From a virus (taxonomy: Duplodnaviria; Heunggongvirae; Uroviricota; Caudoviricetes), in IMG/VR virus record IMGVR_UViG_2925914267_000007, positions 1-42,657 of that record: DNA of 42,657 nucleotides; one strand, 5' to 3'. Every line of letters begins with the position of its first letter. The first letter of the stretch is position 1. A model generated the notes under the pieces. The model was given only the letters and a program-made list of their open reading frames with translations, had not been told where the DNA came from and searched no databases. Positions 1,668-42,657 of the stretch are shown piece after piece. The position numbers and the translations under genes are program-made.

Positions 1668-2765
1668 ATGGCGTACTATAACATAGAGAAACGACTAAAA
1701 TCCGATGGCACACCACGCTATCGCTGTAATGTGATTATCAAAGAAAAAGGTGTTATCACTTACAGGGAAAGCAAAACATTCCCTAAACATGCTCATGCCA
1801 AAACATGGGGCACACAGAAAGTGATGGAATTAGATCTATATGGCATTCCATCATCAAATGCAGTTGACGGACTTACAGTCCGTGACTTACTACACAAATA
1901 TTTAAATGACCCAAATGCCGGAGGTAAAGCAGGCCGTACTAAAAGATATGTGCTGGAACTGCTTATGGATAGTGACATCTCCGCGATCAAACTATCTGAA
2001 CTGACAGAAAATGACGTAATTGAACATTGCAGGCTAAGAAACAACGCTGGCGCAGGTCCAGCAACAGTCAGCCACGATGTTAGTTATCTTGGCAGTGTTC
2101 TGGATGCGGCCAAACCTGTATACGGAATTAATTACACATCAAACCCGGCGAAAAGTGCTCGTCCATATCTACTTAAACTTGGTTTGATTGGTAAATCAAA
2201 CCGTCGTAATCGTAGACCAGCATCTGCTGAACTGGACATGCTCATTGAAGGCCTTCAACAACGATCTACTCATAAATGCTCAAAAATTCCGTTCGTTGAT
2301 ATCCTCAAATTTTCTGTATGGTCCTGTATGCGAATCGGAGAAGTATGCCGGTTACGATGGGAAGATCTCGACCAAGAACAAAAATCTATACTCGTAAGAT
2401 ACAGGAAAGATCCACGCAAAAAGGAAGGCAACCACATGAAAGTAGCCTTGCTTGGGGAAGCCTGGGATATCGTCCAACGACAGCCCCAAAAATCGGAATT
2501 CATTTTTCCATATAACAGCACTTCTGTTACTGCGGGATTTCAGAGGGTAAGAAGCAAATTAGGTATTAAGGATCTGCGATACCATGATTTGCGTAGAGAA
2601 GGGGCAAGTCGCTTATTTGAGGCTGGTTTTAGTATTGAGGAAGTCGCCCAGGTTACAGGGCATCGTTCATTAAACGTGCTATGGCAGGTATATACCGAAC
2701 TGTATCCGAAATCTTTACATAATCGTTTTGAAGAGCTCCAAAGGAGCAGAAATAAGACCCCTTGA
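1668..2765 (+). CDS. tyrosine-type site-specific integrase (dusA-associated integrase class)
   Basis: 365 aa, AT-rich; C-terminal YHDLRRE...GHRS...Y motifs typical of tyrosine recombinases; divergent and adjacent to the dusA 5' end. Confidence 0.85.
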   Translation: MAYYNIEKRLKSDGTPRYRCNVIIKEKGVITYRESKTFPKHAHAKTWGTQKVMELDLYGIPSSNAVDGLTVRDLLHKYLNDPNAGGKAGRTKRYVLELLMDSDISAIKLSELTENDVIEHCRLRNNAGAGPATVSHDVSYLGSVLDAAKPVYGINYTSNPAKSARPYLLKLGLIGKSNRRNRRPASAELDMLIEGLQQRSTHKCSKIPFVDILKFSVWSCMRIGEVCRLRWEDLDQEQKSILVRYRKDPRKKEGNHMKVALLGEAWDIVQRQPQKSEFIFPYNSTSVTAGFQRVRSKLGIKDLRYHDLRREGASRLFEAGFSIEEVAQVTGHRSLNVLWQVYTELYPKSLHNRFEELQRSRNKTP

Positions 2766-2767
2766 CA

Positions 2768-2811
2768 CTGTTTATCCATACAGTTAAAAATGATGCTGTA
2801 TACAAACACAG
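2768..2811. promoter_or_regulatory. two tandem LexA (SOS) boxes overlapping the promoter of the DinI-like gene
   Basis: CTGT-N8-ACAG at 2768-2783 (CTGTttatccatACAG) and 2796-2811 (CTGTatacaaacACAG); TTGACA at 2762-2767; RBS GGAGGG at 2815-2820. Confidence 0.6.
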
Positions 2812-2826
2812 TATGGAGGGACTTTT

Positions 2827-3075
2827 ATGCGTATTGAAATCTGCATAGCCAAAGAAAAAATGACTAAAATGCCAACCGGTGCTGTGGATGCGTTAAAGGA
2901 AGAATTAACCCGACGCATCAGTAAGCGTTATGACGATGTTGAGGTGTTAGTAAAAGCCACCAGCAATGATGGCCTTTCTGTTACACGCACCGCAGATAAG
3001 GATTCTGCAAAAACTTTTGTTCAGGAGACTCTGAAAGATACCTGGGAATCTGCTGACGAGTGGTTTGTTCACTAA
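2827..3075 (+). CDS. DinI-family SOS-response protein
   Basis: 82 aa; MRIEICIAK... and C-terminal [16 protein letters not shown] resemble DinI; preceded by LexA boxes. Confidence 0.75.
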
Positions 3076-3326
3076 TAAACACGTAAAATCTGTAACGGCT
3101 GGAAATCATTCAATACTCGCACTATCGAAAGTTCACCAGCCAACCGCAGCGCGTTCTTGCATACGACGTGGCTGCGGTCTCAACTCCGTCCCCCACCAAT
3201 CATGATTGGGCAGTACCAGTACAGCACTAGTAAAAACTGGAAATAAGCAGTCTCAGCAAAATACCGGCCAGACGGTGAGAAGACAAAAAAGATACGCAAA
3301 GTAGCCGCGGCCCTTAGTGACATGAA

Positions 3327-3349
3327 ATCCCGCTATACGGGCTTTTTTG
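3327..3349 (+). terminator. weak intrinsic terminator candidate
   Basis: Short hairpin CCCG-ctata-CGGG followed by six T. Confidence 0.3.
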
Positions 3350-3423
3350 TATCTGCACACGATTGATTATTAGGTCCGTATAGCTAATAGTGGTCTTAAC
3401 CTACATATAGAATCAGAGACTTT

Positions 3424-4119
3424 ATGAAAAAGGAAATACTCAAGGCTCTTTGCCCTACATGCGGTGGGTTACGTAACTGCACTGTGCATGGGAAGCTAAC
3501 CACTAGCTGGGAGGATTCCCAATATCCAGTTTATGGGTACCATTACCATCACCTACTCCAATGCAATGGCTGTGATACTGTCTTCTATCACCACAACGAA
3601 CACTTCAGTGAGCATACTACCCACGAATATCGTGATGGTGAATTTGTAGAAACGCCTATAGATATGATCACTACCTATCCTGCCGCTGAAACATTTCAAG
3701 CTCCGATATGGTTATCCAAGCTTGAATCAGTTGATCGTCAGCTCTTTCAAATATTTAATGAAATGTATTCTTCATATACTTCTGACCATTTCATTCTTTC
3801 GTCCATCGGTTTACGGACGATTTTTGATCGAACTGCTGAACTGTTACAAATTCACCCCGGTTTGCCGCTTGGTGAAAAAGTTGAAAAATTAAAACAAGAT
3901 GGAGTCATAGGCGACACTGAGGCATGCGTTATATCTTCAGTAATTGATGCAGGAAACGCCGCCGCACATCGCAGTTGGAGCCCGAATAAAAGTGAGTTCG
4001 AACAAATGCTAGAAGCTATAGAAAGTTTTGTCCAAAGAACTATCTTGGGCAAAAAATCACTTGAACATATAACCAAACAACTCCCACCTCGGGTTACAAG
4101 ACCTAAAAATAGTGCATAA
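3424..4119 (+). CDS. orphan zinc-ribbon protein with a C-terminal DUF4145-like domain; candidate accessory or defence gene
   Basis: 231 aa, AT-rich; N-terminal CPTCGG...CTVHG and HH..CNGCD Cys/His clusters; C-terminal GNAAAHRSW motif recalled as characteristic of DUF4145. Confidence 0.6.
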   Translation: MKKEILKALCPTCGGLRNCTVHGKLTTSWEDSQYPVYGYHYHHLLQCNGCDTVFYHHNEHFSEHTTHEYRDGEFVETPIDMITTYPAAETFQAPIWLSKLESVDRQLFQIFNEMYSSYTSDHFILSSIGLRTIFDRTAELLQIHPGLPLGEKVEKLKQDGVIGDTEACVISSVIDAGNAAAHRSWSPNKSEFEQMLEAIESFVQRTILGKKSLEHITKQLPPRVTRPKNSA

Positions 4120-4145
4120 TCCGCGATCATCAATGTGGCGTAAGG

Positions 4146-4738
4146 TTATGGTTTACTTGCTACAGGGAATTTTTTATACACCGTTGAAATACCCAGATCA
4201 TAAATCAGTGCGACTTGCTGCTGATATATTCCCGATTCAATCAACCTGCCAGCCTGCCCCCATTGTTCTACTGTCAGCTTTGGCTTTCGCCCACCGTTCC
4301 TCCCTTCTTGTCGTGCTGCGGCAAAGCCGCCCTAGTACGTTCGACAATAAGCTCTCGCTCCATTTCAGCCAAGGCACCCATCACATGAAAGAAAAAGCGC
4401 CCCATTGGTGTGCTGGTATCAATAGCATCCGTCAGGCTGCGAAAATTAACGCCACGTTCGCGCAACTCTTCCACCAGCACGACAAGATGCCGCATACTGC
4501 GCCCCAGTCGGTCCAGTTTCCAGACCACCAGCGTGTCACCTGCCGATAATGTCCTGAGCAGCTTTTTCAGTCCTGGTCTGTCGGACTTTGTACCGCTTAT
4601 CTTGTCTTCAAAAATCAGCTCACATCCTGCACAGTTCAGCGCATTACGTTGTAGATCGGTATTCTGGTCATTTGTTGATACACGTACATAGCCAATAAGT
4701 ATGTTAAATCCCCCTGGTAAAAGCAGGAATGATGCCAT
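4146..4738 (-). pseudogene. Gin/Pin/Hin-family serine DNA invertase, decayed (start codon ATA plus frameshift)
   Basis: Catalytic domain (ILIGYVRVSTNDQ...ERTRA) in one frame 4274-4738, HTH domain (AAARQEGRNGGRKPKLT...VALIYDLGISTVYKKFP) in another frame down to the TAA at 4146-4148; canonical Met codon reads ATA; apparent 1-nt loss near 4326-4331. Confidence 0.6.
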
Positions 4739-4756
4739 TTGCTTGTTATTTCTTCA

Positions 4757-4782
4757 TTTTCATAAACGTTGGTTTGGGAGAA
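4757..4782. repeat. left 26-bp crossover site (gix/hix-like) of the invertible tail-fibre segment
   Basis: Reverse complement TTCTCCCAAACCAACGTTTATGAAAA matches the right site at 19 of 26 positions with central AA; lies just upstream of the invertase. Confidence 0.6.
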
Positions 4783-5238
4783 ACGATAAATAAAGCCTCC
4801 GGAGCTATGCAGAAATCGGCTAATGGAGCTGATATTTCTGATGTATCAGCCTTCCGAAATGCGCTCCAGTTAGGGACCGCCGCAACACGAGATGTTGGAG
4901 CAGATAATGCCTCGAAGTTACTGGATTTAGACAGCTTCAGGTCAATGATGTCAGGGAATGGCTACATCTACATTCCATGCATTGCGACGACAGGAAACCC
5001 GGTGAAACTTATGTTGCAGTGGGGAACGGTGGCAACACAAAAGGGAGCTGATGCTGGATATGCCTTACCATTTGCTTTTCCCTATGCAGGCTTATTTGCG
5101 ACCGGAAACCGTGGAACATCTGGCTACAATGCCGCGATGAATGTGCGTATTGCCAGCAGAACGCATATCAGTATTCAGAACTGGTCGCCATCCGGAGAGG
5201 GCACCGAAGATTGTTGTTTTATCGCGCTGGGGTATTAA
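4771..5238 (+). CDS. silent alternative tail-fibre C-terminal segment, expressed only after inversion
   Basis: Open frame without its own start; junction encodes VGLGE, mirroring the LGLGE junction in the expressed fibre. Confidence 0.5.
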   Translation, partial: GLGETINKASGAMQKSANGADISDVSAFRNALQLGTAATRDVGADNASKLLDLDSFRSMMSGNGYIYIPCIATTGNPVKLMLQWGTVATQKGADAGYALPFAFPYAGLFATGNRGTSGYNAAMNVRIASRTHISIQNWSPSGEGTEDCCFIALGY

Positions 5239-5240
5239 GA

Positions 5241-5657
5241 ATGAATAAATTTTATAAAGGCTCTTTCTATCCGAAAGCACTAAAAGAGGTATATATCAGC
5301 GCCGGTTCATGGCCTGAAAATGGCGTTGATGTTGATGATGAAACAATGGCAATTTACACAGGCGTAGCGCCACAAGGCAAAACGCTGGGGGCTGATAAAA
5401 ATGGTAATCCTGCGTGGATTGATATCCCGCCACTCTCCGCTGAACAACAGATTATTCAGGCTGAACAGAAAAGAACGGTATTGCGCTCTATGGCTGATAA
5501 GGAAATAGTCTGGAGACAGGATGCTTTTGATGCGGAAATCGCGACGGCAGAAGAAACCGCCGCGTTATCTGAATGGAAAAAATACCGAGTCTTGCTGATG
5601 CGCGTTGATACATCAAATCCCGTCTGGCCTACGCCTCCGGGGGAGCAGGCCAATTGA
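5241..5657 (+). CDS. tail fibre assembly protein, alternative copy
   Basis: 138 aa; Tfa-like sequence ending VWPTPP; 3' end overlaps the convergent Tfa gene. Confidence 0.6.
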   Translation: MNKFYKGSFYPKALKEVYISAGSWPENGVDVDDETMAIYTGVAPQGKTLGADKNGNPAWIDIPPLSAEQQIIQAEQKRTVLRSMADKEIVWRQDAFDAEIATAEETAALSEWKKYRVLLMRVDTSNPVWPTPPGEQAN

Positions 5658-6249
5658 TATCCGGCGCGGTGCTGGTATCAGTTGCCGTCACCGCGTCAAT
5701 GTAATCCAGCACGACGTTAAGCCGGGTGGTTTCTGTCTGCGTCAGTTTTCGCCCGGCCTGCAATTTCAGTTGAATCAGATTAATGGAAGCCATTGCAGTA
5801 TCAATCAGCGACTGGCGTTGTGTTTCTGCCGCTTCTACAGCGGCACGATGTTGCGCATCTGTATCGGTCACCCATTCCTCACCATCCCATTTATCGTATG
5901 GCGTTAACGGTGCGACAGTGGTTATGTTTTCAGGGTAATCACCCGGAGTGGCAATTTCTGCTGCCTCACGGGTTTCTGTGTTATAGACTGTCTCACCCCG
6001 ATGGTCCGGCACATACTCCCACGCGGTCAGGTCAGCAGTGCGGCAAATCATATAACCAGCCCGCCTTTCCCCGGGGGCATCAGTGCATGAATGTGCAGGA
6101 AGGCCAACGCCCACAGCCAGATATTCGGTTGACGTGCAAAGGTATTCCCGCGTCTTATTATCGTAGCTGTGGACAACAACCTCTCCTGCAACTGTTGCCA
6201 GCCGCGATTCATTCAGCACCGCTGTAGTCATGGTGTTCTTGCTCATCAT
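5629..6249 (-). CDS. tail fibre assembly protein, expressed copy
   Basis: 206 aa; Tfa-like, ending INWPAPPEA; immediately downstream of the tail fibre gene. Confidence 0.7.
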
Positions 6250-41644: not shown

Positions 41645-41674
41645 ACAAAAAACCCGCTTCGGCGGGTTAGTTTT
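41645..41674. terminator. bidirectional intrinsic terminator between convergent genes
   Basis: AAAAAA then stem AACCCGC-ttcg-GCGGGTT then TTTT; overlaps the stop codon of the YafO-like gene. Confidence 0.6.
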
Positions 41675-42101
41675 CATCTTTATAATTCTGGGCAATTCGC
41701 GCCAGATAGCTCATCACATCATGTTTTCTTGCTTTTTCATGTGCATCGGGATACATAATAGCAATGAGTGAATATTTATTCTCATAAAGCTCACCTTGGA
41801 CATACACAAGACAAGCATCATTATCAGGATCACCTTTCTTGCAGACCCTATCCGGTTGTGGAAGTTTCTCGGGAAACTTGTTTGGCGGTAGACAAAGATG
41901 GATATGCATCAACCCAGCCCGAAAAGCACCATAGGGCTGAGTATACGCAACGTCCCTACCGAAATAATGCGGAAGCTCACCGGTTGCTTTGTATCTCTTG
42001 AAATCATCAATGATAGAAGACTCTAGCTCCGGGAATTTGAGAAAAACTTCATCAAAAAATTCAGCTCTAGTTTCTGGATTAATAGAGACTTCTAGATGCA
42101 T
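41667..42101 (-). CDS. YafO-family toxin-like protein
   Basis: 144 aa; HIHL...PFP...LVYVQGE...LIAIMYPDAHEKAR parallels YafO as recalled; AT-rich. Confidence 0.55.
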   Translation of the reverse strand: MHLEVSINPETRAEFFDEVFLKFPELESSIIDDFKRYKATGELPHYFGRDVAYTQPYGAFRAGLMHIHLCLPPNKFPEKLPQPDRVCKKGDPDNDACLVYVQGELYENKYSLIAIMYPDAHEKARKHDVMSYLARIAQNYKDEN

Positions 42102-42117: not shown

Positions 42118-42657
42118 TTAGTGAAATTGCATCGATTTTAGCTTATTTGATGTGTGACTAGCTAGTGCTGCAATTCCAGCAAGATCCGCGCGCCCGCTAA
42201 ACGTAACAGTTTCTTTAAATATGCTCTTTATGTAATTGTTAAGGCGAGTGACAGATGAGCGAGCTTTAGCAATATGACGCCAGTAAACCTTCAGTTCTGA
42301 CCTGATAAATTCAGGCAGAGGCGATTCAATTGTACGCTTCACTTCTTCTTCAAAAGCACGCAGGAACATTTCGCATGCCTCTGTCGTATCTGTCCCGTTT
42401 TTGGAAACAAACTCGCGAGCATCTTGGCTATTAAGATCAATCAAACAGATATAGTAGTCATCTGCTGCAATTGTTAACTTTTGCAAGATCTCCTTACCCT
42501 CTTCCATTCTGCGTGAGAATTCCTCAACAGAAGGAGAGTACTCAAAAGGTTTAGCAATCACAGGGGCTGGCTGGATGATGAACTCCTGCGCCATAGCAGC
42601 AGGACAAGCCAGAGGCCCGCACAATGCAGCAAAAGTAATGGCGTTAAACGGATTCAT
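42118..42657 (-). CDS. AT-rich hypothetical protein with signal-peptide-like N-terminus, upstream partner of the YafO-like gene
   Basis: 179 aa; ATG is the last three bases of the window; ITFAALCGPLACPAAMA hydrophobic start; 16-bp spacer to the toxin-like gene. Confidence 0.5.
   Translation of the reverse strand: MNPFNAITFAALCGPLACPAAMAQEFIIQPAPVIAKPFEYSPSVEEFSRRMEEGKEILQKLTIAADDYYICLIDLNSQDAREFVSKNGTDTTEACEMFLRAFEEEVKRTIESPLPEFIRSELKVYWRHIAKARSSVTRLNNYIKSIFKETVTFSGRADLAGIAALASHTSNKLKSMQFH

Follow-up and report, generated by a model that had tools for sequence, protein, structure and literature searches.

The DUF4145 domain was assigned to the HEPN superfamily in 2013, in work that listed its fusion to a 'Zinc Ribbon' and predicted RNase roles in defence (PMC3710099). 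About 80% of DUF4145 members carry a conserved Rx4-6H motif and about 20% are without it, and HEPN families with 'conserved H but lacks R' are also listed (PMC3710099). The nearest described analogue of the gene treated here is PD-T7-4, a 'Zn finger-HEPN' protein of about 219 amino acids (aa) from E. coli UMB1727 (RRL46918.1), which was obtained by functional selection in 2022 (PMC9519451). Its zinc ribbon was placed at about aa 9-59 and its DUF4145 domain at aa 87-175 (Vassallo Table S3, PMC9519451), and in 2026 it was renamed RAZR, for ring-activated zinc-finger RNase, with structures PDB 9Y6U and 9Y9C (PMC13017515). In this study, a 231-aa DUF4145 protein (WP_001514810.1) encoded by a prophage was compared with these and other described systems. 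Its gene lies at positions 3424-4119 of the IMG/VR virus record IMGVR_UViG_2925914267_000007 (Caudoviricetes), of which all 42,657 nucleotides were analysed and are called the window below. We read the gene as a stand-alone prophage 'moron' that would protect its lysogen against other phages by abortive infection, through a mechanism like that of RAZR, and put the probability of this reading at roughly 55%.

The zinc-ribbon domain (ZFD) of RAZR binds ring-shaped phage proteins, namely portals of the T7 type and the Erf-like protein Gp77 of SECphi27; 24 RAZR copies assemble around the ring, and the HEPN domains then cleave RNA unspecifically and block translation (PMC13017515). R146 and H154 are both required, the arginine standing eight residues before the histidine (PMC13017515). 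The ZFD varies more than any other region and sets the phage specificity, a swap of the ZFD being a swap of specificity, and the linker that follows is conserved and packs on the HEPN domain (PMC13017515). The ZFD was superposed by the authors on the zinc ribbon of RPB9, and RAZR alone was not toxic (PMC13017515).

The gene in the window and the parts of its product are as follows, where conservation counts here and below refer to an alignment of 106 diverse relatives with a mean identity of about 29%.

3424-4119, plus strand: DUF4145 gene, complete open reading frame (ORF) with stop codon, ATG start, 231 aa; RefSeq WP_001514810.1, 'DUF4145 domain-containing protein'.
3424-3678, plus strand: N-terminal ZFD, aa 1-85, five antiparallel strands; the proposed sensor.
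3451-3462, plus strand: first zinc knuckle, C10-P-T-C13; C10 and C13 each in 105/106 relatives, P11 in 95/106.
3562-3573, plus strand: second zinc knuckle, C47-N-G-C50; C47 in 106/106, G49 in 102/106, C50 in 105/106.
3679-3711, plus strand: conserved linker, aa 86-96; P86 in 103/106, P94 in 100/106, W96 in 97/106.
3712-4053, plus strand: C-terminal DUF4145/HEPN helical domain, aa 97-210; the proposed RNase effector.
3814-3816, plus strand: codon of R131 (cgg) in G-L-R-T-x-F-D-R; the sole invariant arginine, 106/106, with D135 in 101/106.
3949-3978, plus strand: HEPN histidine motif A-G-N-A-A-A-H182-R183-S-W185; H182 in 106/106, R183 in 102/106, W185 in 106/106.

An identical protein occurs on at least 1000 public contigs, which shows the gene to be real. 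A first-pass annotation, made by reading the letters without database searches, had described an AT-rich 231-aa gene between a DinI-like gene and an invertase, and the ORF at 3424-4119 on the plus strand agrees with this, with a G+C content of 41.5% (whole window 50.4%, prophage body 51.3%). The same annotation had taken GNAAAHRSW for a DUF4145 signature and proposed a Pfam search; the motif lies at aa 177-185, and the assignment was correct, as Pfam DUF4145 (PF13643) matched aa 115-199 over profile positions 4-87 of 88 with 39.0 bits, above the gathering score of 23.1 (E 8.8e-10). PHROG_1305 matched over the full length (E 5e-43), and NCBIfam gave nothing meaningful for the 231-aa protein.

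An AlphaFold2 model (13 homologues, mean pLDDT 83) comprised a beta-rich part (aa 1-85) that a short linker joins to a helical domain at the C-terminus. The latter, aa 97-210, is an alpha-helical bundle of the HEPN type and belongs to the fold of the HEPN superfamily; HEPN toxins of the HepT type were among its best structural matches, and the HEPN domains of AbiA, Csm6, AbiV and RnlA were listed in the fold comparison of the protein. When modelled alone with 29 sequences, the ZFD reached a pLDDT of 93.5, with strands at aa 5-9, 16-30, 37-47, 53-70 and 73-85; one CxxC knuckle lies in the loop that leads into strand 2, the other in the turn joining strands 3 and 4. This ZFD-only model had no Foldseek PDB match at E≤0.001 and neither 9Y6U nor 9Y9C among its top 50, in a search that is weak on small beta domains. 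Matches of the ZFD such as actin-capping protein and RNA-phage coats were at chance level for Foldseek and were discarded.

A profile search of 1.84 billion cluster representatives returned 2696 relatives at E≤0.001. The full-length layout was common to all 289 clusters (50% identity) with E≤1e-30, and the best 150 relatives were nearly all of about 230 aa and aligned end to end. Five residues were invariant in the 106 aligned relatives (C47, R131, H182, W185 and P221), and C10, C13, C50, D135, K152, R183, E200, P86, P94 and W96 were kept in at least 90%. H182 and R131, together with R183, K152 and E200, are thus invariant or nearly so at about 29% identity, which argues for a working active or binding site. 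The ZFD was the most variable part of the protein, with a mean pairwise identity of 27.5% versus 40.2% for the HEPN domain. The zinc ribbon of the first-pass annotation was upheld, since both CxxC knuckles are conserved throughout the family, a median of 37 residues apart, and its beta hairpins were modelled with the above pLDDT of 93.5. Of the two N-terminal Cys/His clusters it had seen, the cysteines of the knuckles stood and the histidines did not: neither the histidines near the cysteines nor C19 are conserved across the 106 relatives, and the predicted metal site is therefore Cys4 and not Cys/His. The word 'orphan' applies in that the gene is single and without a conserved partner, and fails in that homologues are plentiful. 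Five relatives of 326-507 aa (P0079, P0104, P0109, P0112 and P0122) have N-terminal extensions with extra CxxC pairs; weak additional zinc-ribbon matches were seen in such extended relatives, one of which has a DnaG-type CHC2 finger (99 bits). They may be real fusions or gene-calling artefacts and were not used as evidence.

Taken together with the described action of RAZR, this architecture suggests the following course of events. The fast-evolving N-terminal Cys4 domain would hold zinc and bind a protein of the infecting phage, and this binding would alter the oligomerisation of the zinc-ribbon/HEPN protein. The altered oligomer would bring the DUF4145/HEPN domains into an active arrangement around H182, with the arginine coming from R131 and/or R183; the active enzyme would then cut RNA, translation would be shut down and the spread of the phage would be stopped.

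The genomic setting of the gene was described with the help of the following flanking features.

1668-2765, plus strand: tyrosine integrase at the left end of the prophage, adjoining dusA; Pfam Phage_integrase 74.5 bits.
2827-3075, plus strand: DinI-family gene, the upstream flank; Pfam DinI 71 bits, RefSeq annotation.
3179-4140, no strand: variable cargo module, made up of the ORF and some 245 bp upstream of it; bounded by the integrase/DinI backbone on one side and by the invertase pseudogene (3' end) on the other; G+C 42.5%.
4146-4738, minus strand: frameshifted Pin/Gin-type invertase, a serine recombinase; 4274-4738 matches Pfam Resolvase with 167 bits, RefSeq 'frameshifted'.

Prophages of E. 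coli that share the integrase and the DinI gene matched window 2600-3178 at 88-96% identity (local blastn); homology to them ends at 3178, and their slot is either empty or holds an SDH-family serine protease of the Clp fold. A third locus has the DinI gene and the recombinase/tail-fibre flank in common with the window, its homology ending at 3068 and resuming at 4502, and carries a 'TIR domain-containing anti-phage reverse transcriptase' in the slot (the loci compared over slot 3069-4501 are L060, L061 and L062). Since the occupants differ between loci, the slot after DinI is a site of variable cargo, with a recognised defence gene among its occupants, in agreement with the cargo position near the integrase claimed by the first-pass annotation. 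The locus is shared, over 951 bases at ≥99.8% identity, by 33 of 5426 complete E. coli genomes, and each of the matches listed covers both a DUF4145 gene and a recombinase gene. The one E. coli locus looked at in detail (H1, in strain PigCaeca_1) belongs to a prophage adjoining dusA, and dusA is annotated at the matching place in locus L001; attL/attR repeats of the prophage were looked for within the window and not found. E. coli SX12 (hit H14) has one copy on its chromosome and another on a 55,642-bp record with plasmid status (NZ_CP142787.1); the latter record may represent a phage-plasmid, a prophage that has excised or an artefact of assembly.

The family as a whole is spread over many Enterobacterales, Burkholderia and P2-like prophages of high G+C. 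Relatives in Citrobacter and Enterobacter, 67-70% identical, occupy the outer edges of prophages of the P2-like, lambda-like and P22-like kinds, with DinI, umuD/umuC and gtr glycosyltransferase genes among their neighbours. The neighbours of more distant relatives include AbiTii (PADLOC E 1.6e-33), a Gabija-like pair of ATPase and helicase genes accompanied by a PRTase gene, and an Mrr-type enzyme with a second paralogue of the same family. The searches with PADLOC here and below used PADLOC-DB 2.0.0. The paralogue pair was seen in a Rahnella island near an integrase, where two diverged copies about 4 kb apart (L056:2304-3050 and L056:7001-7764) have the Mrr-type enzyme between them, an arrangement that looks like sensor diversification.

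A relative is present on 47 IMG/VR viral contigs, in 46 of which the G+C content of the gene is below that of its flanks (mean difference -11.4 points). At about 26 of the 47 loci, in P2-like prophages, the gene lies between gpS (Phage_tail_S, tail completion) and gpV (Phage_base_V, baseplate spike), so that the gpS/gpV junction is a second recurrent insertion slot; these copies belong to prophages of high G+C and have short gaps and the direction of the late genes (e.g. L027:5001-5678). The junction is presumably the one at which phage P2 carries its non-essential orf30. Neither a DNA match nor a protein match was found among the 50,697 phage genomes on deposit. Across loci of six different contexts no neighbouring gene travels with the family; the upstream regions of six loci do not align and no conserved upstream DNA or RNA element was found, nor was there an Rfam family at the locus. 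With neither a conserved partner gene nor a conserved upstream element, the gene probably acts singly, as RAZR does.

Direct searches for kinship with RAZR gave the following results. Queries with phmmer and with two family profiles did not match the RAZR chain in the PDB sequences at E≤10, in a sequence set in which the presence of 9Y6U and 9Y9C was confirmed with Gp77 as bait. By profile and PDB sequence searches, then, WP_001514810.1 is not a detectable member of the RAZR family. H154 of RAZR was matched to H182, and R146 to position 174, by spacing and Pfam coordinates and not by direct alignment.

Several results weigh against a RAZR-like RNase. None of the 106 relatives has an arginine at positions -4 to -8 before H182, where an Rx4-6H motif would place it; the residues found there are N/S, G, A, D/E and T/V/I. 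Position -5, at which canonical HEPN motifs have arginine, is glycine in 103 of the 106, and position -8 (aa 174) has T, V, I, A or L throughout the 106 and never R. Conserved arginines stand instead at 131, 51 residues upstream of H182, and at 183, directly after it, so that the family either takes its arginine from elsewhere (R131 or R183) or is no RNase; R131 is a candidate catalytic or structural arginine. With the motif arginine missing, and with HEPN families that keep the histidine without the arginine already listed (PMC3710099), RNase activity is not assured. The protein and its family bear no public names other than 'DUF4145 domain-containing protein' or 'hypothetical', the 231-aa protein has no PADLOC match at E≤1, and the PADLOC profile for PD-T7-4 (PDLC04109) touches just 3 of the 106 relatives, at a best E of 0.021. 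In the P2-like prophages, moreover, the gene is packed co-directionally inside the late operon, which also fits a function that serves the phage. The missing motif arginine and this late-operon placement make a non-catalytic or phage-serving role possible.

The non-catalytic role would be that of a nucleic-acid-binding or regulatory phage protein, whose zinc ribbon binds DNA or RNA and whose HEPN domain is for dimerisation or ligand binding only. Such a protein is rather unlikely here, as H182, W185 and R131 are invariant at about 29% identity and the gene is patchily present in prophages that are otherwise near-identical. An essential role for the phage is excluded by the same patchiness, the deposited phage genomes (50,697) hold no match, some relatives have defence genes as neighbours, and the PHROG label is an unverified annotation. 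The gene could also benefit the phage directly and not give immunity to the lysogen; its product might, for example, be an RNase expressed late that serves host takeover or superinfection exclusion, or it might counter defences. The gene is after all borne by phages, and the roughly 26 P2-like loci at gpS/gpV, with their short gaps and late-gene direction, would suit this explanation. We consider it improbable because the enterobacterial copies are found at the prophage edge, away from the structural operons and among genes of lysogenic conversion (DinI, umuDC, gtr), because some relatives lie in defence islands that are not phage, and because the gene is absent from sequenced lytic and temperate phage isolates.

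Two further explanations were weighed. WP_001514810.1 might be a true but divergent member of RAZR/PD-T7-4 with identical action, that is, a 24-mer around portal or Erf-like rings of about 170 Å that cleaves RNA unspecifically. Domain order, size, the Cys4 spacing of about 37-38, the conserved linker, the variable ZFD, the single-gene state and the setting in mobile elements near integrases are shared, and three of the 106 relatives weakly touch the PD-T7-4 model; given the search results above and the different arginines, we hold this to be unlikely. The protein might otherwise be the toxin half of a toxin-antitoxin (addiction) module whose antitoxin is of an unrecognised kind and which keeps the prophage stable. 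The structural matches, with HEPN toxins such as HepT among the best, and the YafO toxin gene at the other end of the window would be in keeping with such a module. Its probability is very low, since no MNT gene or other conserved neighbour occurs on either side in the six contexts, there is neither a conserved upstream element nor an Rfam family, and RAZR as the nearest analogue is not toxic alone (PMC13017515). Abortive infection by a sensor-RNase of a family distinct from RAZR thus stays our preferred reading.

A wider proposal is put forward tentatively, at odds below even. The gene would be the founding member of a second family of immune sensors, a widespread one, in which a single protein combines a zinc ribbon with a HEPN domain; this family would comprise at least 289 clusters and be either independent of RAZR or anciently diverged from it. 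Its members would have an enlarged five-stranded sensor, a site rebuilt as His182 with Arg131 and/or Arg183, triggers unlike those of RAZR, and a history of repeated colonisation of moron slots including gpS/gpV. If the family is active, immunity by a 'sensor zinc ribbon plus HEPN RNase' would be broader than current detection models, since PADLOC 2.0 misses the family. The enlarged, fast-evolving sensor would then offer a second case in which to study how one small domain recognises unrelated phage proteins, and the lack of the motif arginine would reveal if other residues can rebuild a HEPN site. For finding more defence cargo, two places look useful, namely the gpS/gpV junction in P2-like phages and, in dusA prophages, the slot downstream of DinI.

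The DNA upstream of the gene was inspected as well. About 245 bp of non-coding-looking DNA (3179-3423) accompany the gene in E. coli and are not conserved in other genera. One element was read from the sequence.

3329-3350, plus strand: weak hairpin CCCG-CTATA-CGGG (GC stem of 4 bp) followed by a T6 run, upstream of the ORF.

This hairpin may insulate the gene from read-through out of DinI. It is not conserved in the other loci, a terminator scan called a site on the minus strand only (3309-3295), and no promoter-like site was called between 3350 and 3424. In three Enterobacter loci the upstream DNA reads, by eye alone, like the 3' part of a tRNA gene.

On the other side of the gene, the invertase borders a presumably invertible tail-fibre segment, and Pfam assigned tail-fibre genes beyond it. 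Window 4729-6249 contains genes for the tail-fibre C-terminal part and for assembly in opposite orientations beside the frameshifted invertase (4146-4738, minus strand), and this looks like an invertible host-range segment that is probably locked. Elsewhere in the window, the Rfam ALIL pseudoknot (116 bits), a frameshift signal of the IS3 family, was found at 30574-30690 on the minus strand with ORFs 29758-30648 and 30645-30971, so that an insertion sequence appears to sit inside the early region of the prophage. A C4 antisense RNA (34908-34995, minus strand, 67 bits) lies beside an isrK Hfq-binding RNA (35020-35096, minus strand, 60 bits), and the pair resembles a P1/P7-type immunity or anti-repressor control region in a mosaic prophage. 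At the far end of the window, a YafO-family toxin gene (41667-42101, minus strand, Pfam 76.5 bits) is followed by an ORF without a Pfam match that runs to the window end (42118-42657, minus strand); this region might represent a second module of cargo or toxin-antitoxin type, close to the other end of the prophage.

Among other described systems, DS-38 (WP_001313577.1; DefensePredictor, PMC13092281) and HEC-08 (bioRxiv 10.1101/2024.01.29.577857) are alike in being validated defences by a single protein with HEPN and zinc-finger domains. Identity with DS-38 was rejected, as that protein has 366 aa, an N-terminal HEPN domain, several C-terminal zinc fingers and an unrelated sequence; HEC-08 was rejected too, its order also being reversed (HEPN, then zinc fingers, according to its description). 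Both are of 366 aa or a similar length, show no sequence kinship with WP_001514810.1 and differ from it in their HEPN families, which are Retron_IX HEPN-like in DS-38 and DUF3644 in HEC-08. BxaP (PMC10799925) and Ishtar1/2 (bioRxiv 10.64898/2026.07.06.735840) are defence proteins that do use a HEPN domain of the DUF4145 type, but theirs is N-terminal, fused to a HEAT-like or beta/alpha domain and without a zinc ribbon. Toxins of the HepT/MntA type (PDB 5YEP, 7AE8) combine a canonical Rx4H motif with an MNT antitoxin encoded next to them; the WP_001514810.1 locus has neither. No MNT antitoxin neighbour was found in the window or in loci L002-L007 and L055-L058, and a reading as a HEPN-MNT toxin-antitoxin pair fails because there is no partner gene. 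From the roughly 80% of DUF4145 members with the Rx4-6H motif (PMC3710099), the family differs in keeping the histidine and not the upstream arginine.

RAZR has the most in common with WP_001514810.1. Each is a single protein of about 220-230 aa with an N-terminal Cys4 zinc ribbon followed by a C-terminal DUF4145 domain, the knuckles are about 37-38 aa apart in both, and in both a conserved linker is accompanied by a ZFD that is more variable than the HEPN domain. One histidine is essential in RAZR and one is invariant in the WP_001514810.1 family, and both proteins are encoded on mobile elements near integrases in Enterobacteriaceae. They differ in the sensor, which has about 85 aa and two extra long strands in WP_001514810.1 compared with about 65 aa in RAZR, and in the arginine, as the family lacks the counterpart of R146 at -8 and has instead the invariant R131 and R183 after the histidine. 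On this comparison, WP_001514810.1 is most likely a RAZR-like abortive-infection sensor-RNase of a distinct family.

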